Positions 4,393 to 63,910 of a stretch of 64,000 nt of DNA are shown one piece after another (positions within the stretch are counted from its first letter, which is position 1; every line of letters starts with the position of its first letter). The stretch covers positions 21,876-85,875 of the forward strand of contig JANWYV010000009.1 in the NCBI GenBank assembly GCA_025055075.1, written 5' to 3'. The position numbers were made by a program, and so were the translations under genes. This stretch comes from Blastocatellia bacterium (GTDB lineage Bacteria > Acidobacteriota > Blastocatellia > HR10). Under the pieces are notes generated by a model. It had not been told where the DNA came from, did no database searches, and saw nothing but the letters and a program-made list of their open reading frames with translations.

Positions 4393-5817
4393 ATGAGGGC
4401 GACGAAGGTTCGAGAGATCACGCTGTTAGAGCAGGCCATCTTCTCCGGGCGATTCCGGGAAGCGGAGCGGATAGCCGAGGAGGTCTCGCCGGCTGACTTG
4501 CGGTCAGCGGCTGCAAAGGCGCAGGTTTTGATCTACAAAGGGGAGTTAGAGGAGGCGGGGAAGCTTTTCGAAGCGTTCGAGAAGCGGCTTACGGAAGCGA
4601 GTCTGAAGGAGGCAGCCGAATTCGGTCTAGCGAAAGCGGAGTGGCACTATTGGCGGGGCGAGTACGAAGAGGCCAAGCGGCAGGCGCAAGTCGTCTTCGG
4701 GATCTACAGTCTCAATCGCGATCATTTCGGACTGGCACGCGCACTCTATGTGTTGGGGCGGGTGTATCGGCGTCAGGGCGATTACGAGCAAGCGCGGCAG
4801 GAGATGCTGCGTGCCCTGGAGGAGACGGAGGCCGTTGCGGATCGGCCGACGACGTTCCTAATCGGGCTCATCACTTTCAACCTGGGCGTCGTTCATTATT
4901 TTCTGGGGGATCTGGTTCGGGCGGAGGAGGAGTTACTGGCGGCCATTCGTGCTCTTGAGGTGGAGCGAGGTCGGTATTATGGCAATGCCTTGAACTTCTA
5001 CGGGACGCTGCTGATCGGAAAAGGAATGTACGAGGAGGCAGCGCGAATCATTCAAGCGGCGTACGAATGCTTGGCCGAGAGCGCGTTCTTCGACGACTTG
5101 GCGCATGCGACGAATAACCTGGCCTACGCGTGCCTCCGTATGGGGCAGTTCGAGCGCGCGGCGCGGTTGCTGGAGGAGAGTCTGGAGCTGCGCCGCCGGT
5201 CGAAAGATATTGCTGGAGAGTCGGCGACGCTGGAGCTTTTCGGACGGCTGCGCTTCGAGCAGGGGCAGTTATCCGAGGCGGAGGCCATCCTTCGGCAAGC
5301 CATCGAGTTGGCGGAGTTGGGGAAGAATCCGCACGAGAAGGCAGTCGCCGCAATCACTCTGGGGCGTGTGCTTATGGCGCAGGGGCGATGGGAGGAGAGC
5401 CAGCAGCTTCTGGAAGAAGCCTTGGACCTAGCTCTGCAATTGAAGAATAAGTCGCTTCAGGCCGAGAGCCATGCGTATCTGGCGGAGCTATGGGTGCATC
5501 GAGGCAACGGGATGCAGGCGCTTGAACATCTCAGGCGGACGAAGACGTTGATCAACGGATATCGCGATGCCTATCTGTTCGCGCAGATCGAGCGAATCGA
5601 ACAGTTAGTGCAACAGCAGCGGATCAAGGCCGAGGAAGGGATCTTCATGATCCGAAGCAGCTTCTTACCCACATGGCGAGAGGCCCACGAGATGCTGGGG
5701 AAGTTCCTCTTGGCGGAAGCGTTGCGGCATGCTGGTGAGAACCAGACGAAAGCCGCCGAGCTGCTCGGCGTCACGAAAGCCTATATCACGATGCTGCGGA
5801 AGAAGTATGGGATTTGA
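4393..5817 (+). CDS. TPR-repeat protein with C-terminal Fis/NtrC-type HTH (HTH_8); no AAA+ or receiver domain
   Basis: 474 aa. TPR-like helical repeats throughout (e.g. ARALYVLGRVYRRQGDYEQARQEMLRALE). The C-terminus GENQTKAAELLGVTKAYITMLRKKYGI aligns with the Fis C-terminal HTH (GNQTRAA...KKYG). RBS GAGGGGAG. Confidence 0.75.
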   Translation: MRATKVREITLLEQAIFSGRFREAERIAEEVSPADLRSAAAKAQVLIYKGELEEAGKLFEAFEKRLTEASLKEAAEFGLAKAEWHYWRGEYEEAKRQAQVVFGIYSLNRDHFGLARALYVLGRVYRRQGDYEQARQEMLRALEETEAVADRPTTFLIGLITFNLGVVHYFLGDLVRAEEELLAAIRALEVERGRYYGNALNFYGTLLIGKGMYEEAARIIQAAYECLAESAFFDDLAHATNNLAYACLRMGQFERAARLLEESLELRRRSKDIAGESATLELFGRLRFEQGQLSEAEAILRQAIELAELGKNPHEKAVAAITLGRVLMAQGRWEESQQLLEEALDLALQLKNKSLQAESHAYLAELWVHRGNGMQALEHLRRTKTLINGYRDAYLFAQIERIEQLVQQQRIKAEEGIFMIRSSFLPTWREAHEMLGKFLLAEALRHAGENQTKAAELLGVTKAYITMLRKKYGI

Positions 5818-5832
5818 AAGGAGGGCTCAGGT

Positions 5833-6198
5833 ATGAGGAAGCTTCTCGGGATCGCGTTCCTCGTGTTCTTGCTTGGAACTCTCACCGTGCCTGCGGATGC
5901 AGGGGTCACGGCTGGTGGAAGACCGTATCTTCCTGGAGAAGACTTGCCGGTTGGGGGAGTGACGGCTGGAGGCCGACCTTTCGTCCCCGGTGGGGGAGTA
6001 TTCACCCCAACGGGCTTCGGCTTTGGCGCCCAGTTCTATGATGAGGGATGGGAGGCCGAATCGAATCCCTATTGGGGCGGGGGCGGATGGAGTGATCTGA
6101 TATGGTGGCCCTCTTGGTCTTGGTTCGGATGGGGACTATTTGGTGTCCTCGATTTCCTCTTTGGTCTTCCCGCCAGCTTTTTCTTCTTCCTCTACTGA
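5833..6198 (+). CDS. Small secreted/membrane-tethered repeat protein (hypothetical)
   Basis: 121 aa. Strong RBS AAGGAGGG 7 nt upstream. Signal peptide MRKLLGIAFLVFLLGTLTVPADA. Two tandem 18-aa units follow, then a Gly/Trp/Phe-rich hydrophobic tail (WWPSWSWFGWGLFGVLDFLFGLPASFFFFLY). Confidence 0.6.
   Translation: MRKLLGIAFLVFLLGTLTVPADAGVTAGGRPYLPGEDLPVGGVTAGGRPFVPGGGVFTPTGFGFGAQFYDEGWEAESNPYWGGGGWSDLIWWPSWSWFGWGLFGVLDFLFGLPASFFFFLY
5902..6009 (+). repeat. Tandem 54-bp (18-aa) coding repeat, 2 copies
   Basis: GVTAGGRPYLPGEDLPVG (5902-5955) and GVTAGGRPFVPGGGVFTP (5956-6009). The first unit starts exactly after the predicted ADA signal-peptidase site. Confidence 0.8.
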
Positions 6199-6202
6199 AG
6201 GA

Positions 6203-6240
6203 GGCGCGGTTCCGAGAGTGGCCCCCCTCGGGGCCGCGCC
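6203..6240. terminator. GC-rich hairpin between convergent genes (possible bidirectional terminator)
   Basis: GGCCCC (6220-6225), loop CCTC, GGGGCC (6230-6235). Flanked by GGCGC (6203-6207) and GCGCC (6236-6240). Lies between the mini-protein stop and the phoR stop. Confidence 0.4.
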
Positions 6241-6246
6241 CGAGAT

Positions 6247-7383
6247 TTATCCACTCATTGCCGCATCGGTTGAGGCCTCTGCCTGCGCAGCTTTTGGCTC
6301 AGGAGCTGCCCTCAAGCTGAGGATGAATTCCGAACCGACTCCCGGTTCGCTCCTGACGCGAATTTCCCCTCCATGGAGTTGGACGAGATGCTTCACAATG
6401 GCCAGGCCAAGGCCGCTTCCTCCGGTCTCCCGGGATCGGGACTTCTCACTCCGATAGAAGCGCTCGAAGATCCGAGGTTGATCGGCTGGAGGGATGCCGA
6501 TCCCTGTGTCGGCGATCGAGATCTCTATATGCTCCCCCAGGCGGCGTGCGCGAACCCAAACATGACCGCCGGGGCGGTTGAACTTCACGGCATTATCCAA
6601 AAGGTTCTGCAGGATCTGGGTCAAGCGGAAGGGATCGGCCAGCACGTGAATCTGTTCGGGGACTTCGTTCACGATCGTAATGCCGCGCTCTTGCGCTTGC
6701 AGCCGAGTCAACTCCAGGACTTCCTCAACGGAGGCATGCAATGGAATCGCCTCTAGCGAAAGCGTGATCGCGCCTGACTCGATCTCTGCCAAGTCAGTGA
6801 TATCCCGCACCAGGGCATGGAGCCGTTGCGCCTGACGAAAGAGACCATCTAGGCAACGGCGCACGTGCTCGGGATCATCCAGTCCGGTCTCCTGTAACGT
6901 CTCAACGTAAGCGAGAATGGCCGCCAGCGGCGTACGCAGCTCGTGTGAGAGGTTAGCGAAGAAGTCGCGCCGTATACGTTCCAATCGCTCTAAAGCGGTG
7001 ATCTCTACGAAGACGCCCAAGGCAGCTTGCGGCATGTTGGAAACGATGCGGAGCGGGGCAATCCTGGCCTGAAATGTACGCGGTTCGCCGCGGCGCAGCT
7101 CGAAGCGCAACTCGACGGAGGCGCCATGCTCGAGCGCTTGTTGGAAGCCCTCGTGCAGCGTGGGATCGCGGGTGAGATCAATCAATCGAATGGGACGAGA
7201 GGAGAGCGGCGGTGGGGGGAAGATCTCAGCCGCTGCCGGATTTTGAACGAGGACGGTCATCTCCCGGTCCACGACAAGCACCCCTTCCCGCATGGCAGCC
7301 AGAATGGTCCGCCACACGGGATGGGCGGCATGGACCAACTCGTGAAAAAGCTCACGATCAGCGCTTTCTTCGGCAAGGCTCAC
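6247..7383 (-). CDS. phoR: Phosphate-regulon sensor histidine kinase (PAS + HisKA + HATPase_c)
   Basis: H-box FFANLSHELRTPL, N-box LLDNAVKF, G-boxes DTGIGI and GGSGLGLAIV. GTG start overlaps the phoB stop (GTGA). Confidence 0.8.
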   Translation of the reverse strand: MSLAEESADRELFHELVHAAHPVWRTILAAMREGVLVVDREMTVLVQNPAAAEIFPPPPLSSRPIRLIDLTRDPTLHEGFQQALEHGASVELRFELRRGEPRTFQARIAPLRIVSNMPQAALGVFVEITALERLERIRRDFFANLSHELRTPLAAILAYVETLQETGLDDPEHVRRCLDGLFRQAQRLHALVRDITDLAEIESGAITLSLEAIPLHASVEEVLELTRLQAQERGITIVNEVPEQIHVLADPFRLTQILQNLLDNAVKFNRPGGHVWVRARRLGEHIEISIADTGIGIPPADQPRIFERFYRSEKSRSRETGGSGLGLAIVKHLVQLHGGEIRVRSEPGVGSEFILSLRAAPEPKAAQAEASTDAAMSG

Positions 7384-16338: not shown

Positions 16339-17112
16339 TCACCGAACCTTGTCTGGGCTCGGCGGCTTCTCGAAGAGCTTGGGATCAATGGAAATGTTCA
16401 CCTGCACATCTTCGAAGCTCGCGCGGGAGACCTGGACATTGCCCTTGTAGCGGTCAATTCGCAAGGGGAGCTTGATCCCGTCGAAGTCCTGATAGAGGTG
16501 GAAACGCTCCTCCTCGTCCTCGTAGGCGAGCTTCACCGGCAGATACGTCTGAGGGTCGAAATAGACCTGGATGCGGTCCACCTCCTCGCCCTCAAGGGGA
16601 ACGATCAGCTCCACGCCGACGCCGCGTTGCCGAAACCAGAGTTCGCGTTCGCCCAAATAGCGCAACTTCACATCGGATCGCCGCCAGAGGTCGCGCATGA
16701 CCGTCTCCAAGCTCCGCCGTTGCGCCGTGCGGAAGCGGGCGATCTCCTCTTCTTTTTGGTCGCGGAGGTTGCGCGAGGGGCCATCGTAGATCCAACCGCG
16801 GGCGCCGACGTTGACCTGAATGAACCGATCCTTGCCGCGTCCGAATTCGACGCGCTCCCGATCGGGGTAGACGATGTAGACGGTGAAGGGGAGAAGGGCT
16901 TGCAATTGCTCTCGCTCGTTGAATTGCGAATAGAGTCCGCGTCCCATGATGGATTTGAGCGCGAGATACTTCTCGCCGCCGAGCGCGCGCGTGGCCGCCT
17001 CAAAGAGCGCGCGCGCGCGATCTTCTTGAGTCGGGGCGGGGGACAGAAGCCCGAGAAGAAGCACGAGGCTCAATTTACAACGAATCAGCGTCCGAAAAGG
17101 CCCGCTCGACAT
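16339..17112 (-). CDS. Secreted hypothetical protein (LolA-like/lipoprotein-sorting-like guess)
   Basis: Signal peptide (LSLVLLLGLLSPAPTQE) and a beta-rich body. Lies 10 bp downstream of the clp gene. Family assignment is a guess. Confidence 0.45.
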   Translation of the reverse strand: MSSGPFRTLIRCKLSLVLLLGLLSPAPTQEDRARALFEAATRALGGEKYLALKSIMGRGLYSQFNEREQLQALLPFTVYIVYPDRERVEFGRGKDRFIQVNVGARGWIYDGPSRNLRDQKEEEIARFRTAQRRSLETVMRDLWRRSDVKLRYLGERELWFRQRGVGVELIVPLEGEEVDRIQVYFDPQTYLPVKLAYEDEEERFHLYQDFDGIKLPLRIDRYKGNVQVSRASFEDVQVNISIDPKLFEKPPSPDKVR

Positions 17113-17122
17113 GGATCGTCCG

Positions 17123-19405
17123 TCACACGACGACGGCTTCCAAGGGATGCACCTGGATCTCGTTCTCCTTCACGTCCACGAGGAAGTGATCGGCCTCCTT
17201 CCACATCTGCGTGATCGGGAGCTTCACGTGTTCATCAATCGTGCGCTTGAGGAAGCGAGCCCCGAACTGAAGGCTGTACCCCATCTCGACGAGCCGATCC
17301 AAGGCGGCTTCGGTCACGGTCAGGCTCTTGTTGTACTTGGCCATCTGCGCGCGCGTCTTCTCCAGATACAGGCGCGCGATCTCGCGCACCTCCTCGCGCG
17401 TGAGCGGGGAGAAGACGATGATCTCGTCAATGCGATTGCGGAACTCGGGGGAGAAGTGATCTTCCGCCGCCTTGATGATTTCTCGCTTGATCTGCTCCAA
17501 TGTGTCCTTGTTCTGCGGAGCGAAGCCCAGCGGATTCAAGTACTTCTTGTACCGATCGCTCCCCAGGTTCGAGGTCATGATGACGATGGCGTCCGAGAGA
17601 TAGACCTTCTTCCCGCGCCCGTCGGTGATCCAGCCCTCGTCGAAAGCTTGGAGGAAGAGCTGCATGAGATAGATGGACGCTTTCTCGACTTCGTCAATGA
17701 GGAGGACCGTGAAGGGGTTGTCGCGCAGCGCTTCGGTGAGGATGCCGCCGCGCTCGCTCCCGACGATGCCGCGCGGCATGCCGATGAGCTTCTCGATACC
17801 GATGGTGCCGTCCTGATATTCCGAGCAATCAATGCGGATCATCTTGTTCTCGTCGCCGAACATGAATTCGGCGACGGCCTTCGCCAGTTCCGTCTTCCCG
17901 ACGCCCGTCGGACCGAGGAAGAGCAAGACGCCATCGGGACGATAGAAGTTCTCCTTGAGCGGGCCCTTATTCAGTCGAAGGCGACGGGCGACGGCGCGAA
18001 TGGCTTCTTTCTGGCCGACGACGCGACGGCTGAGGGCCTCCTCCATCTCCTTGAAACGCTCGGTCGTGTCGCGGAAGATCATGTCCTTGGGGATGCGGGA
18101 ATCTTGGGAGATGACCTCGATGACGTGCTCAGGACGAACGATCCGCTCCTCCGGCTGCTCGATCTCGACCTTGACGGCCGCCGTGTCCAACCAGCCGATG
18201 ACCTTATCCGGCAAGTGGAGCCCGCGCAGGTATCGCGGCGCCATCTCCAGGGCCGTCTCAATGGCTTCCTCGGAGATCGTCACCGAGTAGTTGCGTTCCA
18301 ATCGGGGCTTGATCCCTTTCAGGATCTGGCGCGTCTCTTCGAGCGTCGGTTCCTCGACTTTGACAACGCGGAAGCGGCGGGCGAGGGCTTCATCCTCGGC
18401 GATGTACTCCTTGTATTCGGTCATCGTCGTCGCCCCGATGATGCGGATCTCGCCTCGAGCGAGAGCACCTTTGAAGATATTGGCGGCGTCATTGGAGACG
18501 CCCAGCGCCGCACCCGCGCCAATGATCGTGTGCGCTTCGTCAATAAAGAGGATGATGTTCTCGCGCTCTTTGACCTCGTTGATGATGCCGTGCAAACGTT
18601 CCTCGAACATTCCCCGCAGCATCGTCCCGGCGACGACGCCCGACATCTGCAAGCCCACGATGTGGGCATTCCGCAAACGCGGGGGGACGCGTTCGGGGTG
18701 GAATTCGATGAGCTGCGCGAGCCCTTCGACAATAGCCGTCTTCCCAACGCCCGGATCTCCGACGAGCATGACGGAATTAGCGCGCTCGCGGTGGCAGAGG
18801 ATCTCCATCACCTGCCGCAGCTCCTTCTCTCGACCGATGAGCGGTGGCAGCTTATCCTCGCGAGCGAGCTTATTGAAGCTGACGCCGAAATGCTTCAGAT
18901 AGGGAGGCAATTCGTAGCGACGACGGAAGCGTTCTTCCCGCTCCTCGCGCGAGCGCACGCGCGTGATGATCTTTTGCAAGACGACGTCCGGGTCTGCGCC
19001 GAGCCGCCGCATCAGCTCCACGGGCACGCTATCGCGATCTTGGAAGAGAGCGACGAAGAGATCCGAGGAGTCAATCTCATTGCGCCCCATGGAGCGAGCG
19101 CGATCCAACGCCAACTTCAAGATCGTGCGACAGGAAGGATCCAGGCGTACGCCGCGCCCGGTGAACTGACGCGCGACCGACAATTGCTCGTTCAAGGCGC
19201 GGATGACGGCCTGCGGATCAATGTTGAGGCTTTGCATGACCTCGTTGAAGAGTGAACGCTCGACCTCGATGAGAGCTGCCAAGAGGTGCTCGGGCGCGAC
19301 GATATTGTGATCCCGGTGGCGAGATTCCTCGATGGCTCGCCCCATGACGCGGCGTCCGCTCTCGGAGAACTTGTCTTGGAATGGTCCCAGGTCAATCATA
19401 GCCAT
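17123..19405 (-). CDS. ATP-dependent Clp protease ATP-binding subunit (ClpA/ClpC family, two AAA+ modules)
   Basis: Clp_N repeat at the N-terminus. Walker A GDPGVGKT (D1) and GPTGVGKT (D2). PLGF loop sits at the position of the ClpP-docking IG(F/L) loop. 760 aa, with no long ClpB-type middle domain. Confidence 0.9.
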   Translation of the reverse strand: MAMIDLGPFQDKFSESGRRVMGRAIEESRHRDHNIVAPEHLLAALIEVERSLFNEVMQSLNIDPQAVIRALNEQLSVARQFTGRGVRLDPSCRTILKLALDRARSMGRNEIDSSDLFVALFQDRDSVPVELMRRLGADPDVVLQKIITRVRSREEREERFRRRYELPPYLKHFGVSFNKLAREDKLPPLIGREKELRQVMEILCHRERANSVMLVGDPGVGKTAIVEGLAQLIEFHPERVPPRLRNAHIVGLQMSGVVAGTMLRGMFEERLHGIINEVKERENIILFIDEAHTIIGAGAALGVSNDAANIFKGALARGEIRIIGATTMTEYKEYIAEDEALARRFRVVKVEEPTLEETRQILKGIKPRLERNYSVTISEEAIETALEMAPRYLRGLHLPDKVIGWLDTAAVKVEIEQPEERIVRPEHVIEVISQDSRIPKDMIFRDTTERFKEMEEALSRRVVGQKEAIRAVARRLRLNKGPLKENFYRPDGVLLFLGPTGVGKTELAKAVAEFMFGDENKMIRIDCSEYQDGTIGIEKLIGMPRGIVGSERGGILTEALRDNPFTVLLIDEVEKASIYLMQLFLQAFDEGWITDGRGKKVYLSDAIVIMTSNLGSDRYKKYLNPLGFAPQNKDTLEQIKREIIKAAEDHFSPEFRNRIDEIIVFSPLTREEVREIARLYLEKTRAQMAKYNKSLTVTEAALDRLVEMGYSLQFGARFLKRTIDEHVKLPITQMWKEADHFLVDVKENEIQVHPLEAVVV

Positions 19406-24868: not shown

Positions 24869-26191
24869 CTAGCGGCCAAGGTAGACGATGACTCGACCGG
24901 CTCCTCGTAAACCCCCGGGCTCTCCAACAGCTAGATCCGGTTTTCCATCCCGGTTCAGATCCCCGATAGCTATGGCCGTTCCGAACTCACCATTAACCTC
25001 CGGACTCGGCGGATCGAGGATCAGATTGGCATTCGGGCCGATAGTGCTTCCCCCTTGGAAGACGTACACCCGTCCGGCCTCTTGACGATTGCCCACCACT
25101 GCTCCGATGGCGCCGACAGCCAGGTCAGCGATACGATCGCCATTCAGATCACCGGTGGCCACGGCATACCCGAACCGAGAATCGAGTTGTGGAGCGGGGG
25201 CCTCTAAAATGAGATTGGGGTCATTACTCATCGCGGGTCCACCAAAATAGATGTAAACTCGTGGCGGTTGGGATTGGATCGAATCTCCGACGACGATGTC
25301 CGCATAGCCATCACCGTTGAGATCGGCCACAGCAAGCGATGATGCGAATGTGGGATCAATCAGCGGGCCGGCCGGAGGACGAGGATTGAGGAGCGTCAGA
25401 TTGGGCCGACCACTCATGGACTTCCCTCCAAAGAAGACATAAATGGCGCCATTTCCGTTCGTCCCCCCCAGCGGTGCGCCCACGACGACGTCAGCGAATC
25501 CATCTTTATTGATATCTCCGGCTGCGACAGCTAAGCCGAATTGCTCTCCGAGAGTTCCCCGTAGGGTCGTACGCCGAGACCCGATCGTGCTCCCCCCATA
25601 GAGAATGACCACGGCGTCCAGCAACCAAGCTCCAGCGATCAGATCGCTCGCTTGATCACCGTCCACATTGCCACTGGCCAGGGAATCTCCGAAGAACCCA
25701 CCGATTAGGGTATCGGGATCCGGGGGGAGCGGGCTCCGTATGGTCACCGGACTGATCCCGAAATTCGATGCTCCACGATAGATGAAGACTCTCCCATCGA
25801 AGGAAGAATCCTCGCTATTGCTGGCCTCGGGAGCGCCGATAGCCAGATCGGTTCGATTATCCCGATTCCAATCGCCGGAGGCGAGGGCACTTCCGAAAGC
25901 AATTCCCGCCTCACGCGTGGAGAGCGTCCGATCGGGCGTCTGTCGAAGCGTCGGACGCCCGTAGAAGACGAAGACGCGCTCGCGGCGATTGGAGACGGCG
26001 AGATCCAAGATACCGTCGCCGTTGAAATCTCCAATAGCTAGAGCCGAGCCAAAGAACGTATCGACCGTCGGCCGCGATTCGGTCAAAATGAGAGGCGATT
26101 GTTGGAAAGATTGGGGGACGACGGGGCTCCCTATCAAAAAGAGCCAAAGCATGAGATGCGAAAGGCGACGTGGGACTCTCCCTGTCATCAT
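24869..26191 (-). CDS. Secreted FG-GAP/integrin-alpha-like repeat protein (beta-propeller)
   Basis: Signal peptide, then about seven repeats of the FG-GAP type (FGSALAIGDFNGDGILDLAV, FGSALASGDWNRDNRTDLAIGAP, FGLAVAAGDINKDGFADVVVGAP, FGYAVATGDLNGDRIADLAVGA, FGTAIAIGDLNRDGKPDLAVGEP). Confidence 0.8.
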   Translation of the reverse strand: MMTGRVPRRLSHLMLWLFLIGSPVVPQSFQQSPLILTESRPTVDTFFGSALAIGDFNGDGILDLAVSNRRERVFVFYGRPTLRQTPDRTLSTREAGIAFGSALASGDWNRDNRTDLAIGAPEASNSEDSSFDGRVFIYRGASNFGISPVTIRSPLPPDPDTLIGGFFGDSLASGNVDGDQASDLIAGAWLLDAVVILYGGSTIGSRRTTLRGTLGEQFGLAVAAGDINKDGFADVVVGAPLGGTNGNGAIYVFFGGKSMSGRPNLTLLNPRPPAGPLIDPTFASSLAVADLNGDGYADIVVGDSIQSQPPRVYIYFGGPAMSNDPNLILEAPAPQLDSRFGYAVATGDLNGDRIADLAVGAIGAVVGNRQEAGRVYVFQGGSTIGPNANLILDPPSPEVNGEFGTAIAIGDLNRDGKPDLAVGEPGGLRGAGRVIVYLGR

Positions 26192-59273: not shown

Positions 59274-59777
59274 ATGATCTATTGTCCGCGCTGTGGACGA
59301 CTGGCTAGCTCGACGCAAAAATTTTGCACCGGGTGCGGGCTTCATCTGCTCGTTGTCCTTCAGGCGCTCGCCAGTCAGGCGGCGACGGAGGAGCTGGAGG
59401 CTCTCGAACGACGCGTGAGGACCTTGCGGCGTGGGGTGCAGCAGATGTTCTCCGGCCTCGGTCTCGCGTTCTTCTTCTATTTTTTCTTCGGCCATAGCAT
59501 CGGATTCGCGTCCATCGGGCTAATGATGTTCTTCATCGGCCTGGGGCAGGTTCTGAACGCTATGCTCTTCGCCTCTCCCGCTCTACGCATCGAATGGCGC
59601 ATTCCGTCACTTCCTCGCGAAGGGGAGAGGCACTCGATGTCCGCTCCCCGGCCCGAGGAAGGGGCTACGGTACGCGCTCGCGATCTCCCGGAATCCCGCC
59701 CTTCTGTCACGGAATCGCCGACACTCCCTCTTGATCCATCGCAGAGGTTCGCCAATGGTGATATGGTCCGACGATGA
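59274..59777 (+). CDS. Zinc-ribbon membrane protein (paralog A)
   Basis: N-terminal CPRCG...KFCTGCG ribbon, two hydrophobic helices (GLGLAFFFYFFFG..., IGLMMFFIGLGQVLNAMLF), Pro-rich tail with RPSVTESPTLPLD. RBS GAGGAAGGGA. Confidence 0.6.
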   Translation: MIYCPRCGRLASSTQKFCTGCGLHLLVVLQALASQAATEELEALERRVRTLRRGVQQMFSGLGLAFFFYFFFGHSIGFASIGLMMFFIGLGQVLNAMLFASPALRIEWRIPSLPREGERHSMSAPRPEEGATVRARDLPESRPSVTESPTLPLDPSQRFANGDMVRR

Positions 59778-59802: not shown

Positions 59803-60324
59803 ATGATGTATTGCCCGAGATGCGGAACGCTAGCCCCCGAAGGACGAAAATTCTGCACGATGTGTGGGATGAATCTCGACCTCATTGCAGAAGCGCTTGC
59901 TGGCCGGAGTGCGACGAAGGGATTACGCTCGCTCCTGGAGTGGATCTTCGCACCACGGCCCGAACCGACGCCTGAGCAAAAGCGCCTGCACGATATTCGG
60001 AGCGGTGTGCTGACGATCTCCGTTGGAATCGGCCTCTCTCTGCTCCTCTTCCTCCTTTTGAACGCCGTGGCCCAGCATCCCCATGTGGACCCGGCGGCCG
60101 CGCGGATCATTCGGGCAGTTTGGACTTGTGGCCTCATTCCCATCTTTGTGGGAATCGGGCAGATCGTGAATGGCCTCTTCTTTTGGAGGCCACTGGGTCG
60201 GTCGGAACCACGAGCCCATGAACTTCTGCCCCCTTCCGTGACGATGCCGCTTCCTTCGGAGATGCCGGAGTCTCCGACTCGGCTCCTGGATGACATTCGC
60301 GCTCATCGTCATGACCCCCGTTGA
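59803..60324 (+). CDS. Zinc-ribbon membrane protein (paralog B)
   Basis: Same layout as paralog A: CPRCG...KFCTMCG, two TM helices, tail PPSVTMPLPSEMPESPTRLLDD. Lies 25 bp after paralog A. Confidence 0.6.
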   Translation: MMYCPRCGTLAPEGRKFCTMCGMNLDLIAEALAGRSATKGLRSLLEWIFAPRPEPTPEQKRLHDIRSGVLTISVGIGLSLLLFLLLNAVAQHPHVDPAAARIIRAVWTCGLIPIFVGIGQIVNGLFFWRPLGRSEPRAHELLPPSVTMPLPSEMPESPTRLLDDIRAHRHDPR

Positions 60325-60349: not shown

Positions 60350-60378
60350 TTGACTTCACCCGGAGAGACCGATAAAAT
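60350..60378 (+). promoter_or_regulatory. Promoter of the metalloprotease-cohesin-dockerin gene
   Basis: TTGACT (60350-60355), a 17-bp spacer, then TAAAAT (60373-60378). Confidence 0.5.
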
Positions 60379-60430
60379 CGGGTCCATCCTTACGCGATGA
60401 TAGGAAATGTGGGCGATGAGGGAAGCGACC

Positions 60431-63400
60431 ATGAGGAACGCTCGAAAAGTCATATCGCATTGGTTCCTGGCGGTCCTTGTGCTCAATGCGCTTGGACCCG
60501 GTCTGCTGGCGTGGGGAGCGGATCGCTCCGCTCGATCTCATGCAGTCCGGGCGTCGCATTTCTTGATCTCGAAGACCCAGGATCTCATTCAGCACCAAGA
60601 TTTCACTCAACACCAGGACCTTACCGAACATCTGACGGCGCATGGCGAAGGTGGAGGGTTCGTTATTGTGCAGGGAGAAGACGGAAGCGCTACATGCCGC
60701 GAAGCGACGCCGGAGGAGCTGCTTCAGATGCGGCCGGATCCGAACGTGCCGCTGCATGTGATCACCCCTCTTCAAGCGAGCCAGCAGCAAACAGGACTTC
60801 GGATCATCTTGCGCGGAACGCCACAACTTGAGCAATTTCCTCAAGCGAAAGCGGCTTTCCTGCGCGCCGCGCAAACGTGGGAGCGCCTCATTCAAAGCCC
60901 GATCACCGTTGTGATCGATGTGGATTTCGGGCCCACGCGATTTGGACGGCCTTTTTCACCGCGCACTATCGGTTCTGCGATCACACAAGAAGTCGGAGGA
61001 TCCGTTTACTCGGGCGTTCGATCCCAACTACTCGCTGGGGCCTCCTCTGCATCCGAGACGACCATTTACACGGCGCTGCCGCAGGGACAAGTGCCAACCG
61101 ATCTCGGCGCGACTGAACGAATATTGGCTCCTTCGGCTGTCTTTCGCGCGCTCGGCCTAATCAACCCTGTCGCCGATCCCGATGGTGAGCGCAGCCGGTT
61201 CGGCGATCCACCATCTATCGGCTTCAATTCGAACATGCCGTTCGATTTCAATCCCAATGATGGGATTGATCCGGACAAGCTGGACTTCGATGCTACGGCC
61301 GTGCATGAGATCGGCCATGTCTTGGGGTTCACCTCTCTGGTCGGATATCGGGAATTAGATGCTTCTTCTCCCGTCGCCGTGAGTGTATGGGATCTCTTTC
61401 GCTTTCGCCCGGGAGTTACACAGGCGACCTTCTCGACAGCCCAACGGATCTTGTCTTCAGGTGGAGAGCAGGTTTTCTTCGCCGGACCTCCAGCGCTTCC
61501 GCTCTCCACTGGGCGGCCGGATGGTTCTGGAGGGGATGGAAATCAAGCGAGTCATTGGAAGGACGACGATTTGACCGGGCAGTACATCGGCATTATGGAT
61601 CCAACGGCTCGCCCCGGAGAGCGGAACGAGATCACGGAGAACGACTTGAAGGCTCTTGACTTTTTCGGATATCGGGTAAGTGCGCAAACGCAACCTCCGC
61701 CAAGCGGCGACGTTGTGGATTTGACCTCTGGGGTACCGCAGCAGGGTTCTATTCCGGCGCCGTCTCAACCCGGTCGGGGTGTGCTGGGCGAGACACAGTA
61801 TCGGATCCGGGTTCCGGCTGGGGCGACACAATTGCGAGTGGAGTTGCGCGCCAGCGGGACTCAGGACGTGGATCTCTACGTCCGATTCGGCCAAAGGGTC
61901 GAGCTTCAGGGGGGGCGCGTCGTCGCCGATTACATCTCGGAATCTCCGGCGGGTGTCGAGACCATCACGGTGACGCCGTCAAGCTCTCCTCCCTTGCGGG
62001 AAGGGGCATATTTCATCGCCGTTGGAAACTTCGGGCCAGGAGCAGCGACCTTCACGGTGACGGCGACAGTAAGCGGTGGCGCGCAACCTCCGCCTGCGCA
62101 GCCCGATATAGATGTGCAGCCAATGGCGCTCGATTTCGGTAACGTCACGGTCGGTTCGACGGCCGATCGAACGGTGACGGTGAGAAACGTGGGGAATGCA
62201 CCGCTCACGGTTACCGCTTTGAGCATTGACAATCCGCGGTTCACGGTCACTTCTCCCTCGGCACCATTCACGGTGAGTGCTGGAGGACAGCAGACGATTA
62301 CCGTGCGATTCGCGCCGACGGCGGCGGGAGCGCAAAGTGGGACTTTGCGCATCCAGAGCAATGACCCCGATGAAGGCACAGTCTCGGTGAGCTTGACCGG
62401 TCAGGGAGTGGCCGCCCCTCCACCGGCTCCAGGACGAACGCTCAGCGTGCCGAACGCTTCGGGAGAGCCCGGGCGCACGGTCACGATCGCCGTGAACCTC
62501 TCCGAAGGGAGCGGAATTTCGGCCCTCTCCTTCACGTTGAGCTTCAATCCGTCTGTGCTCTCGGTTTCCGGACCGTCGGCCGTCTCACGTGGATCGCTCG
62601 TGCCGGACACTTTCTCGGTCAGCCCGAATACGGCGACGGCGGGGCAAGTGCGGATCGTCATCTCTCCGCCGCTTCAGACGCCGCTGCCGACGTTCCGAAG
62701 TGGAAGCGGCTCGGTCGTCACGATCACTTTTCAGGTGGCCTCCGGCGCATCCTCGGGGGCGACGAGTCCACTTGCGCTCTCGGACATTTCGGCGTCGGAT
62801 CCAAATGCTGGCTCTGTTCCCATCACGCCGCAAAACGGGACATTCACGGTCGGCGTCGCTCGAACGTTGACCGTGGCCAGCGTCCAGGGAGCTGCGGGTT
62901 CGACCGTGACTATCCCGATTACGCTCTCGGAGGGAGCGGGCATCTCGGCCTTGCAATTCACGCTCAGCTTCAATTCCGCGATTCTGACGCCGGCGGCAAA
63001 TCCCGTCGCATTGGGCTCGCTTGTCCCGAGCGCCTTCACCGTGAGCGCGAATACGGCGACGACGGGGCAAATCACGGTTGTGATCTCGCCGCCATTGACG
63101 TCGCCATTGCCGACGTTCAATTCGGGAAGCGGGACGATCGTCACGCTCACGTTCCAGGTCGCGAGCGGAGCGAGCCCGGGGGCGACCAGCCCGCTCGCGC
63201 TGTCGAACATCTCGGCGTCAGATCGGAATGCGAACTCCGTGGGGATCACGGCGCAGAATGGAACGTTCACGGTCTTGGCGGTGCGGCGGGGCGATATCAA
63301 TCAGGATGGGGTGATCAACGTCCAAGACCTGATCCTGTTGATCCGGCATTTGACGGGAGAGAGTCCGCTGACGGGAGCCGCTTTGCAAGCGGCGGACGTC

Positions 63401-63910
63401 AATGGCGATGGGCAGGTGAACGTGCAAGATGTCGTGCGCCTGATTCAGCATTTGACGGGGGAGCGTCCGCTCTCTATTCGCGTGCCCGGTGAGGAAGAGA
63501 CAGCGCGTTGGGTGGCGCTCGGCGAGCGATTTTGGACCCAGGGGATGTTGGTCGTGCCAGTTCTGATCAATGAGGCGAGCGATGTGGCTGCCGCCGAGTT
63601 GATCGTCGAATATGATGCGGCGAAGTTGCAGCCGGATCTCGCGGAACCTGTGAGAGCTGTCGGACTCCCGGCAGGATTCCAGTGGCATGCGCGCGTGATC
63701 GAACCGGGACGCCTCGGGCTTGTGCTTGTGCCTCCAGTGGGAGCACCGATTCCGACGTTGCCGGGTGGCATCCGAGTTCTCACTCAGATGCGGTTTCTCC
63801 CAGTGCCGGGCGTTGGGGCTGAGGAAGCTGCTGCAGCGCTCGTGCGCGTGCGCCATGTTGGGCTCGCGGATCGCGAGGGACGCGCGATTCCAGCGAAAGA
63901 GATTCCATGA
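60431..63910 (+). CDS. Secreted multidomain protein: HExxH metalloprotease + PPC domain + Ig-like (choice-of-anchor-D-type) domain + 2 cohesin-like modules + dockerin-like module + third cohesin-like module
   Basis: ATG 60431 (MRNARKVISHWFLAVLVLNALGPGLLAWGA signal peptide) follows RBS GAGGGA. Domain evidence is listed in the sub-features below. No recognisable cell-anchoring C-terminal signal. Confidence 0.85.
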   Translation: MRNARKVISHWFLAVLVLNALGPGLLAWGADRSARSHAVRASHFLISKTQDLIQHQDFTQHQDLTEHLTAHGEGGGFVIVQGEDGSATCREATPEELLQMRPDPNVPLHVITPLQASQQQTGLRIILRGTPQLEQFPQAKAAFLRAAQTWERLIQSPITVVIDVDFGPTRFGRPFSPRTIGSAITQEVGGSVYSGVRSQLLAGASSASETTIYTALPQGQVPTDLGATERILAPSAVFRALGLINPVADPDGERSRFGDPPSIGFNSNMPFDFNPNDGIDPDKLDFDATAVHEIGHVLGFTSLVGYRELDASSPVAVSVWDLFRFRPGVTQATFSTAQRILSSGGEQVFFAGPPALPLSTGRPDGSGGDGNQASHWKDDDLTGQYIGIMDPTARPGERNEITENDLKALDFFGYRVSAQTQPPPSGDVVDLTSGVPQQGSIPAPSQPGRGVLGETQYRIRVPAGATQLRVELRASGTQDVDLYVRFGQRVELQGGRVVADYISESPAGVETITVTPSSSPPLREGAYFIAVGNFGPGAATFTVTATVSGGAQPPPAQPDIDVQPMALDFGNVTVGSTADRTVTVRNVGNAPLTVTALSIDNPRFTVTSPSAPFTVSAGGQQTITVRFAPTAAGAQSGTLRIQSNDPDEGTVSVSLTGQGVAAPPPAPGRTLSVPNASGEPGRTVTIAVNLSEGSGISALSFTLSFNPSVLSVSGPSAVSRGSLVPDTFSVSPNTATAGQVRIVISPPLQTPLPTFRSGSGSVVTITFQVASGASSGATSPLALSDISASDPNAGSVPITPQNGTFTVGVARTLTVASVQGAAGSTVTIPITLSEGAGISALQFTLSFNSAILTPAANPVALGSLVPSAFTVSANTATTGQITVVISPPLTSPLPTFNSGSGTIVTLTFQVASGASPGATSPLALSNISASDRNANSVGITAQNGTFTVLAVRRGDINQDGVINVQDLILLIRHLTGESPLTGAALQAADVNGDGQVNVQDVVRLIQHLTGERPLSIRVPGEEETARWVALGERFWTQGMLVVPVLINEASDVAAAELIVEYDAAKLQPDLAEPVRAVGLPAGFQWHARVIEPGRLGLVLVPPVGAPIPTLPGGIRVLTQMRFLPVPGVGAEEAAAALVRVRHVGLADREGRAIPAKEIP
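61304..61318 (+). other. Zinc-binding HExxH motif of the protease domain
   Basis: The codons encode HEIGH within DFDATAVHEIGHVLGFTS. A conserved SHWKDD lies about 75 aa downstream. Confidence 0.75.
61706..62085 (+). other. Pre-peptidase C-terminal (PPC)-like beta-sandwich domain
   Basis: GETQYRIRVPAGATQLRVELRASGTQDVDLYVRFG...EGAYFIAVGNFGPGAATFTVTATV follows the PPC pattern (Y.f.v..g..l.v.l....D.DLyv....G.Y.i.V). Confidence 0.6.
62104..62406 (+). other. Ig-like domain of the choice-of-anchor-D / ASH type
   Basis: DIDVQPMALDFGNVTVGSTADRTVTVRNVGNAPLTVTALSIDNPRFTV...FAPTAAGAQSGTLRIQSNDPDEGTVSVSLTGQG. Confidence 0.6.
62435..63274 (+). repeat. Tandem duplication of a 423-bp (141-aa) cohesin-like module, 2 copies
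   Basis: Copy 1 spans 62435-62857 (RTLSVPNASGEPGRTVTIAVNLSEGSGISALSFTLSFNPSVL...QNGTFTV). Copy 2 spans 62858-63274 (RTLTVASVQGAAGSTVTIPITLSEGAGISALQFTLSFNSAIL...QNGTFTV). About two-thirds of residues are identical by eye. Confidence 0.8.
63290..63465 (+). other. Dockerin-like module (two Ca-binding EF-hand-like segments)
   Basis: GDINQDGVINVQDLILLIRHLTG and DVNGDGQVNVQDVVRLIQHLTG. This is the duplicated D.N.DG.vn..D + helix pattern of type I dockerins. Confidence 0.75.
63509..63907 (+). other. Third, divergent cohesin-like module
   Basis: MLVVPVLINEASDVAAAELIVEYDAAKLQP...GGIRVLTQMRFLPV follows the cohesin pattern (v.vpv.l.....v.a.ef.l.YD...l). Confidence 0.55.

Follow-up and report, generated by a model that had tools for sequence, protein, structure and literature searches.

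The classic high-affinity links within cellulosomes are cohesin-dockerin pairs, which have also found wide use in synthetic biology; outside plant-fibre degraders, the role of these pairs is largely unknown. Non-cellulosomal modules of both types were reportedly surveyed by Peer et al. in 2009 and are said to be widespread and mostly of unknown function; non-cellulosomal cohesin and dockerin proteins of Archaeoglobus fulgidus (2xdh) are said to have been described by Bayer in 1999 and by Voronov-Goldman in 2011. In Ruminococcus bromii, the GH13 amylase Amy4 has a dockerin that binds its own cohesin, suggesting multimerisation, and the cohesin also recruits other dockerin-bearing enzymes (Ze et al. 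2015, PMC4611034). The same paper cites comparable same-chain cases in R. flavefaciens and A. fulgidus, the latter as presumed multimerisation. Peptidases with a dockerin have been described from cellulosomal bacteria (PMC12484212, PMC2930009). In the present study, we analysed a stretch of 64,000 nucleotides (hereafter the window) from Blastocatellia bacterium (contig JANWYV010000009.1, positions 21,876 to 85,875), in which one gene encodes a predicted secreted zinc metalloprotease carrying three cohesins (Coh1 to Coh3) and one dockerin (Doc) in the same chain.

We propose that this protease self-associates in trans, outside the cell, through its own dockerin and cohesins. The proposal draws on module profiles, predicted structures, conservation among orthologs and natural variants of the cassette, and we put its probability at roughly 0.45.

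Modules and folds of the cassette

An earlier note, made from the DNA alone, had read the protein as a signal peptide, a short His/Gln-rich repeat, a secreted HExxH protease, a PPC-like domain, an Ig-like domain of the choice-of-anchor-D type, two tandem cohesin-like modules, a dockerin with two Ca-binding segments and a third, divergent cohesin, and had proposed profile searches. These searches, together with structure prediction, upheld the list, and the module assignments beneath the idea of self-assembly all hold (Table 1; residue numbering begins at the start codon at 60431).

Table 1. Features of the protease gene, its product and its immediate surroundings
Feature	Position	Strand	Residues	Description
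Multidomain metalloprotease gene, complete	60431..63910	+		1159 aa; stop codon included
Signal-peptide-like N-terminus	60431..60517	+	1-29	MRNARK, hydrophobic core, AWG↓AD site
Three imperfect hexapeptides	60578..60631	+	50-67	QDLIQH/QDFTQH/QDLTEH; pattern QD[LF][IT][QE]H
NF038122 ('metallo_LGF') zinc metalloprotease domain	60842..61672	+	138-414	NCBIfam 219.7 bits, cutoff 80
HEIGH motif	61304..61318	+	H292, E293, H296	Zinc-binding/catalytic motif
SHWKDD motif	61550..61567	+	374-379
PPC-like (pre-peptidase C-terminal) beta-sandwich	61799..62023	+	457-531	PF04151 25.0 bits
Choice-of-anchor-D/ASH-type Ig-like domain	62090..62374	+	554-648	NF012200 86.2 bits, cutoff 45
Cohesin 1 (Coh1), type-I-like	62438..62851	+	670-807	PF00963 60.3 bits
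Cohesin 2 (Coh2), type-I-like	62864..63274	+	812-948	PF00963 57.8 bits
Type I dockerin	63290..63454	+	954-1008	PF00404 54.4 bits
Dockerin Ca loop, first segment			955-966	DINQDGVINVQD
Dockerin Ca loop, second segment			989-1000	DVNGDGQVNVQD
Cohesin 3 (Coh3), divergent	63506..63904	+	1026-1158	PF00963 just 16.4 bits; hhalign, AF2 and Foldseek
Sigma-70-like promoter candidate	60350..60378	+		TTGACT-17-TAAAAT; 10/12 consensus positions matched
Two tandem genes of paralogous small proteins	59274-59777 and 59803-60324	+		Between rpoD and the protease gene
BNR/sortilin-like neighbour in ortholog loci	L002 13632-16076; L004 13610-16012; L005 6558-9182; L081 6264-8861			Directly downstream of the protease gene

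Coh1, Coh2 and the dockerin score well above the gathering thresholds (24.1 bits for PF00963 and 22.9 bits for PF00404), and the Pfam Cohesin match of the whole protein comprises three stretches (E = 4.6e-31). Coh1 and Coh2 are 67% identical. The best sequence match in the Protein Data Bank (PDB) was a Clostridium acetobutylicum cohesin, 6kgc, for Coh1 (E = 7e-9), and 8x39 (E = 1.2e-14) and 6kg9 were the best matches for the dockerin. Coh3 fails the PF00963 threshold on its own, but the profile of ten orthologous Coh3 sequences matched the profile of Coh1 and Coh2 over 115 columns in hhalign (97.6%, E = 3.5e-12).

Two AlphaFold2 (AF2) models were examined. The first, of Doc and Coh3, was based on 10 near-identical sequences (predicted local distance difference test, pLDDT, 64) and was used for fold matching and not for geometry; its top 26 Foldseek matches were all cohesins (template modelling score, TM, 0.5-0.59), led by the Clostridium perfringens cohesins 2jh2, 2vo8 and 2w1n. 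The second, of Coh2-Doc-Coh3, used a more diverse alignment of 19 sequences and reached a mean pLDDT of 87.7. In this model, Coh2 (pLDDT about 95) and Coh3 (about 90) are each predicted to form a beta-sandwich with nine strand elements, and the dockerin to form three helices (model residues 155-166, 173-179 and 189-200). Foldseek aligned it with the type I cohesins 6kgc_A, 5nrm_A and 4uyp and with the A. fulgidus cohesin 2xdh at TM 0.81-0.84 and a root-mean-square deviation of about 2 Å.

The two dockerin segments are nearly symmetrical (17 of 26 positions identical); each consists of an EF-hand-like Ca loop of the form D-x-N/D-x-D-G...D and a helix after it, and both carry V-Q (V964/Q965 and V998/Q999) at the canonical recognition positions 10/11. 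Identical recognition residues in both segments are the signature of a possible dual binding mode.

These data bear on an explanation that we hold to be quite improbable, in which no pairing takes place between the modules: the cohesins would act as Ig-like spacers or would bind a ligand such as a glycan or protein substrate, and the dockerin would stabilise the protein by binding Ca or target it to an export or sorting route. Like sorting domains, the cassette is always C-terminal on otherwise unrelated secreted proteins, and non-cellulosomal cohesin and dockerin modules, although widespread, are mostly of unknown function (PMC9012536). Both module types nevertheless score well above their family thresholds, the predicted type-I-like fold matches cohesins from crystal structures of cohesin-dockerin complexes at TM 0.81-0.84, and both Ca loops and the helix positions of the dockerin are intact and symmetrical. 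Cohesin and dockerin also strictly co-occur in all variants described below, and no known sorting profile was matched. The earlier note had seen no wall, membrane or sorting anchor at the C-terminus; in agreement with this, Pfam, NCBIfam and hydropathy analysis of the window protein gave no transmembrane segment, hydrophobic end, LPXTG, PEP-CTERM, S-layer homology (SLH) or type IX secretion system C-terminal domain (T9SS CTD), and no match to a sorting profile.

Constraint, variants and carriers of the cassette

The same architecture is found in about 20 positional orthologs from Acidobacteriota/Blastocatellia, and full-length identity of orthologs to the window protein is 73-82%. In 11 full-length orthologs, identity to the window protein is 98% for the dockerin, 84% for PPC and for Coh1, 83% for the choice-of-anchor-D domain, 82% for Coh2, 81% for the protease, 61% for Coh3 and only 42% for the N-terminal region. 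A codon-level analysis of three genes gave a ratio of nonsynonymous to synonymous substitution rates (dN/dS) far below 1 in each domain: 0.009-0.018 for the dockerin (dS 0.73-0.81), 0.07-0.08 for the protease (dS about 1-1.9), 0.09-0.11 for Coh1 (dS 0.63-0.97), 0.12-0.18 for Coh2 (dS 0.79-1.09) and 0.18-0.28 for Coh3 (dS 1.1-1.5). By this measure the dockerin is the most constrained element, about 8-10 times more constrained than the catalytic domain, and Coh3 is the fastest-evolving module. As the low ratio of the dockerin was found at a dS of about 0.75, its near-invariance indicates selection on the protein and not recent exchange. The dockerin helices (…QDLIRLIQHLTGExPL…) are the best-conserved part across all carriers of the cassette.

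The natural variants of the cassette are Coh1-Coh2-Doc-Coh3, Coh1-Coh2-Doc, Coh-Doc-Coh3 and Doc-Coh3, and every one of them has at least one cohesin and exactly one dockerin per chain. Coh3 is missing in two lineages. In the P0013-P0018 group, the protein ends directly after the dockerin. We considered these proteins as paralogs and rejected this, as P0018 lies in the same position next to rpoD and the DUF6249 genes (see below); they are divergent positional orthologs without Coh3. In the lineage of P0012, L081, L089, L090 and L093, Coh3 was destroyed by a frameshift and a deletion (lesion sites at L081 ~5700-6600, L089 7001-7900, L090 4576-5476 and L093 4994-5894); Coh1-Coh2-Doc is intact, and the remnant 'VRWMAIGESFWSEG', in another frame, is all that survives of Coh3. 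The lesion is real, because it is the same in four independent assemblies. This lineage retains a dockerin of about 98% identity, so the constraint on the dockerin is not imposed by Coh3, and Coh3 itself is dispensable.

These observations, together with the second AF2 model, weigh on an unlikely alternative, in which the dockerin would fold back on Coh3 (through the flexible linker) or on Coh2 of the same chain, and would thereby stabilise the protein, auto-inhibit it or cap the dockerin until release. Doc-Coh3 is a recurrent C-terminal dyad, a minimal protease-Doc-Coh3 protein exists, and the linker between Doc and Coh3, which is flexible, indel-rich and 12-25 residues long, could allow such folding back. 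However, despite the high confidence of the individual domains, the predicted TM score (pTM) of the model was 0.50 and the linker was disordered (pLDDT <50); the model thus predicts no confident fixed docking of the dockerin within the chain. Coh3 evolves fastest while the dockerin is frozen, and the two lineages without Coh3 keep the dockerin. As for Coh2, the conserved junction between it and the dockerin (FTVxAxRRGD) has 3-4 residues and is probably too short for the dockerin to reach the 8-3-6-5 sheet of Coh2, the canonical dockerin-binding face.

Since the variants keep cohesin together with dockerin, Coh3 is dispensable and no confident intramolecular docking was predicted, self-association would most probably proceed in trans and engage Coh1 or Coh2. 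After export, the Ca2+-loaded dockerin of one molecule would insert into a cohesin, chiefly Coh1 or Coh2, on a second molecule, and its near-symmetry could let it bind in either orientation. Outside the cell, this may give dimers, daisy chains or branched oligomers. As each chain has three sockets and one plug, free cohesins would be left for cross-linking, and co-assembly with other secreted proteins that carry the same cassette would be possible where such proteins exist. The need to fit several cohesins at once, perhaps in two orientations, might have left the dockerin almost frozen. Assembly of this kind would concentrate a scavenging protease and hold it close to the producer or on its substrate. 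The comparative data agree with joint action of cohesins and dockerin within one polypeptide, and the self-assembly or recruitment suggested in the earlier note is plausible and partly supported. In Coh2, conservation is higher on the 8-3-6-5 sheet (0.933) than on the opposite one (0.859; p = 0.014), and Coh1 and Coh2 are more alike on this sheet (24/31 positions identical, vs 28/48 on the other sheet); this is weak support for the model.

The cassette is found on other proteins as well. We scanned reference genomes for the dockerin pattern, and relatives (74-98% identity) occurred in six species-representative genomes only, at one locus each: four full orthologs, L009 and L010. At L009 (1432-6663, plus strand; RFHM01000302.1, Acidobacteria metagenome-assembled genome (MAG) J050), a subtilase of 1744 codons (Peptidase_S8) ends in Coh-Doc-Coh3. 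Its dockerin is 79% identical to that of the window, and its cohesin and C-terminal module score 186 and 88 bits, respectively, in profiles built from the present family. A different protease class has thus acquired the same cassette. L010 (4741-6630, plus strand) and L095 (5741-7630, plus strand), from the Blastocatellia MAG JALSQX01, encode a signal peptide, the NF038122 protease and Doc-Coh3 in 630 codons; without PPC, Ig-like domain, Coh1 and Coh2, this type is the simplest version, with one plug and one socket. A metagenome scan gave ten loci with dockerins 74-100% identical to that of the window, all on NF038122 proteases.

An exhaustive HMMER search of 1.84 billion protein representatives with a Doc+Coh3 profile gave 9282 matches, which were mostly dockerin-only; just about ten clusters matched the whole dyad. 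Among the proteins recovered, P0127 has DUF11, six Ig domains and Coh-Doc-Coh3; P0128 has FG-GAP, a beta-helix, DUF11, Ig domains and Coh-Doc-Coh3; P0129 has an N-terminal domain without assignment and Coh-Doc-Coh3; and P0130 is of the minimal protease type (protease-Doc-Coh3). From its sequence distribution, the Coh-Doc-Coh cassette is portable, being carried by metalloproteases, an S8 subtilase and non-protease secreted proteins. The wording 'protease lattice' in the earlier note was therefore too narrow, as the cassette also ends proteins that are not proteases. FG-GAP modules, as in P0128, also make up nearly all of a 440-aa protein of the window (24869-26191, minus strand; 189 bits, six stretches), in which no cohesin or dockerin was detected. 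In the more distant NF038122 proteases P0103 and P0113 (L082 3001-6219), two cohesins flank a duplicated segment 'GNGSVxxADWVQxGRxxAGLD', which by eye looks like a divergent dockerin-like pair and in which Pfam calls no dockerin. P0122 had been considered to be a free-standing Doc-Coh3 adaptor; this was rejected, as it represents part of a full-length ortholog that is broken by a gap.

The spread of the cassette over several different secreted proteins would also suit another explanation, which we regard as possible but clearly less probable than self-association: the dockerin may fix the protease to a cohesin-bearing anchor or scaffoldin that is separate and conserved and lies on the outer membrane or within the matrix, and the cohesins of the protease may recruit other dockerin proteins, forming a hierarchical 'peptidosome'. 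This is the usual logic of scaffoldins that carry both module types (PMC12484212), and the extreme conservation of the dockerin is in keeping with a conserved partner. Scaffoldin-like proteins with multiple cohesins occur in uncultured, presumably non-cellulolytic bacteria, for example P0150 (L084 26-6593, GCA_025055355.1), an N-terminally truncated protein of 2189 aa with seven Pfam cohesin stretches, Big_1, eight stretches that match the Doc+Coh3 profile, beta-helix-like repeats by eye and no dockerin. P0150 itself was set aside as a partner, as it comes from an unrelated MAG that could not be linked to the present organism. Moreover, neither the open reading frames (ORFs) of the window that were examined nor 6-10 kb of flanking DNA at the ortholog loci L001-L010 yielded another cohesin or dockerin gene, and the pattern scan of the six reference genomes found no second carrier of this dockerin type in any genome. 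L086 and L087, which lie in one assembly and have 100% identical dockerins, were considered as two carriers in one genome; both are located 3' of rpoD and the DUF6249 genes and are 76% identical, and they were recognised as orthologs of two species. No two different carriers were found to share one genome.

Several points weigh against self-association through the protein's own modules. In classical cellulosomes, a scaffoldin's own dockerin is not usually a binding partner of its cohesins, so co-occurrence of both module types in one chain is no proof of cognate pairing. The conservation of the dockerin could equally mean a conserved external partner. The conservation signal on the 8-3-6-5 sheet of Coh2 is absent in Coh1 and Coh3, and pTM taken by itself is a soft argument. 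Finally, the genome scan used two peptide patterns on incomplete MAGs, and it could have missed a divergent dockerin protein or a separate cohesin anchor.

A broader proposal, which we regard as speculative and rather doubtful, is that Coh-Doc-Coh serves Blastocatellia-type Acidobacteriota as a general, self-complementary module for assembly. NF038122 metalloproteases, the S8 subtilase, and beta-helix/FG-GAP and Ig-repeat proteins would then be joined in an extracellular Ca-dependent network (a 'peptidosome'), with the near-invariant dockerin as the common plug. This would be the first cellulosome-like system dedicated to scavenging protein, and also the first from a phylum of diderms.

Protease head, gene and neighbourhood

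The listed ORF extends from 60407 to 63910 on the plus strand (1167 aa), with an in-frame alternative ATG at 60407. The start at 60431 has a Shine-Dalgarno-like GAGGGA about 9 nt upstream and agrees with the N-termini of the orthologs. The promoter candidate lies 29-53 nt 5' of the two start codons (60407 and 60431). It is the only sigma-70-like match in a 5-kb region, a number equal to chance expectation; its position alone is suggestive of a promoter. An identical protein (P0001, 100%) is encoded on JAVQWP010000025.1 (GCA_033578955.1, L001), where the contig stops at 85410, inside the gene after codon 1035; the window reads through the stop codon and 90 nt beyond.

From its domains and motifs, the product is assigned as a Sec-type secreted zinc metalloprotease of about 120 kDa in the uncharacterised NF038122 family. 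The only strongly hydrophobic stretch is at residues 7-30 (Kyte-Doolittle maximum) and has no lipobox Cys; hydropathy and inspection by eye, including the AWG↓AD site, thus bear out the signal peptide, and the N-termini of the orthologs are equivalent. The His/Gln-rich repeat reported before is present as three imperfect units, where the orthologs have a single unit (~QDLTEHL). It appears to be a lineage-specific expansion within a poorly conserved N-terminal linker or pro-region, and Tandem Repeats Finder (TRF) found no DNA repeat there.

The match to NF038122 spans profile positions 2-273 of 274. H292-E293-x-x-H296, H375-W376-K377 and M389 are conserved in at least 97% of 119 relatives; the earlier note had pointed to HEIGHVLGF and SHWKDD. 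As H375-W376-K377 is invariant in the family, H375 is a candidate third zinc ligand, and the GIMDP that follows SHWKDD (GxMxP type, with M389) is a candidate Met-turn. The protease head looks catalytically intact. The only PDB sequence match of this domain was a weak one to karilysin (M10), around HExxH; our literature search found no paper mentioning NF038122 and no characterised member of the family. As for the two beta-sandwich domains behind the catalytic domain, which may serve as spacers or in binding, the term 'PPC-like' was fair: the PF04151 score (E = 3.7e-5) is just under the gathering threshold (25.0 vs 25.9 bits), but the equivalent domain of relatives passes it at 40-110 bits. The choice-of-anchor-D assignment was confirmed, and PF15780 and PF22544 also match that region.

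The window is ordinary chromosomal DNA (about 61% GC) with genes for tetratricopeptide repeat (TPR) proteins, a phosphate-selective porin, a class II tRNA synthetase, RNase J, RecG, a family 2 glycosyltransferase (GT2), an M24 peptidase, MutS2, DnaG and RpoD. The phosphate-selective porin indicates a diderm organism. The source annotation of the relatives is Blastocatellia or Acidobacteria MAGs, and the host is a diderm soil or mat acidobacterium of the Blastocatellia type. Scans of the window for tRNAs and Rfam families gave no matches. Long ORFs overlap on opposite strands at 17111-19255 (plus, 714 aa) and 17123-19405 (minus, 760 aa); that on the plus strand had no Pfam match at E <= 1e-5.

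In every long contig examined, the gene order dnaG, rpoD, one or two genes for small zinc-ribbon/DUF6249 membrane proteins and the protease gene is kept. In the window, the two small proteins each have an N-terminal zinc ribbon (CPRCG...C..CG) followed by DUF6249 membrane segments. One or two DUF6249 genes lie at the same place in all ortholog loci examined, even where synonymous sites are near-saturated; this retention of position suggests a possible functional link with the protease, for example as a membrane sensor or regulator. The usual 3' neighbour of the orthologs, whose place is past the end of the window, encodes a conserved protein of about 800-870 aa with faint BNR/sortilin-Vps10 repeats. 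In the sister lineage (L080), an M4 thermolysin-like peptidase takes its place.

Comparison with known systems

The locus is not a cellulosome: no carbohydrate-active enzyme (CAZyme) or carbohydrate-binding module (CBM) was found in the protein or in the window ORFs examined, and no anchoring module in the protein. The absence of cellulosomal enzymes nearby, stated in the earlier note, was borne out, as no glycoside hydrolase or CBM gene was found among the window ORFs examined and no such domain in the protein by Pfam and NCBIfam. Our literature search found no paper that combines cohesin, dockerin, Acidobacteria and protease, and none that describes this family or cassette.

The locus is a compact and tractable case in a poorly studied phylum, as both partners are in one protein. 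For cellulosome specialists, it offers for experiments a frozen dockerin and a natural series of variants that differ in their number of cohesins (one to three) and in having or lacking Coh3; the minimal L010/L095 protein would be ideal for a binding test. If the modules pair, this would show that diderm bacteria of soils or mats use enzyme self-assembly by cohesin and dockerin to scavenge protein, and a new orthogonal Coh-Doc pair would be available for protein engineering. If they do not pair, the locus would be a clear counter-example to inferring 'cellulosome-like' function from these domains.

Scaffoldins such as CipA of Clostridium thermocellum and ScaA of Acetivibrio cellulolyticus resemble the window protein in that one secreted chain has type-I-like cohesins in tandem and, after them, a dockerin, with canonical fold and Ca loops. 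However, the dockerin of a scaffoldin has a different specificity from its own cohesins and leads to an SLH- or sortase-anchored partner, and scaffoldins have CAZyme partners and CBMs, none of which were found here. Dockerin-bearing peptidases, such as the S8 double-dockerin protein of C. thermocellum (8x39) and the peptidases of R. flavefaciens, share the combination of a protease with a type I dockerin, but they are serine or cysteine peptidases of Firmicutes that lack cohesins and dock onto existing cellulosomal scaffoldins. The toxin and glycosidase complexes of C. perfringens (2jh2, 2vo8, 2w1n) likewise have non-cellulosomal cohesins in large secreted enzymes, where they link enzymes; these are glycoside hydrolases of a Gram-positive pathogen, and the pairing is, as far as is known, between different enzymes and not within one family. 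The A. fulgidus case shares a non-cellulosomal, non-cellulolytic host and a cohesin and a dockerin on the same polypeptide, and 2xdh has a TM of 0.82 to our model, but it is archaeal, has another domain context and is distant in sequence (23% identity).

The novelty implied by the earlier note was overstated, as R. bromii Amy4 is already an enzyme whose dockerin binds its own cohesin (PMC4611034). Like the window protein, Amy4 combines a catalytic module, a cohesin and a dockerin in one secreted chain and is not a cellulase. Its pairing is known from binding, whereas the window protein is likened to it from sequence and predicted structure. Amy4 belongs to a Gram-positive Firmicute and has one cohesin and a C-terminal dockerin, and its genome has 26 dockerin proteins and sortase-anchored scaffoldins. 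The present protein is from a diderm acidobacterium, has a metalloprotease head and three cohesins with the dockerin between them, and no other cohesin or dockerin gene was detected nearby; its modules make up a Coh-Doc-Coh cassette that is portable and has a dockerin of unusual invariance. The assembly principle is thus known, and what is new is a variant of it that does not concern cellulose, with a protease head and in an acidobacterium.

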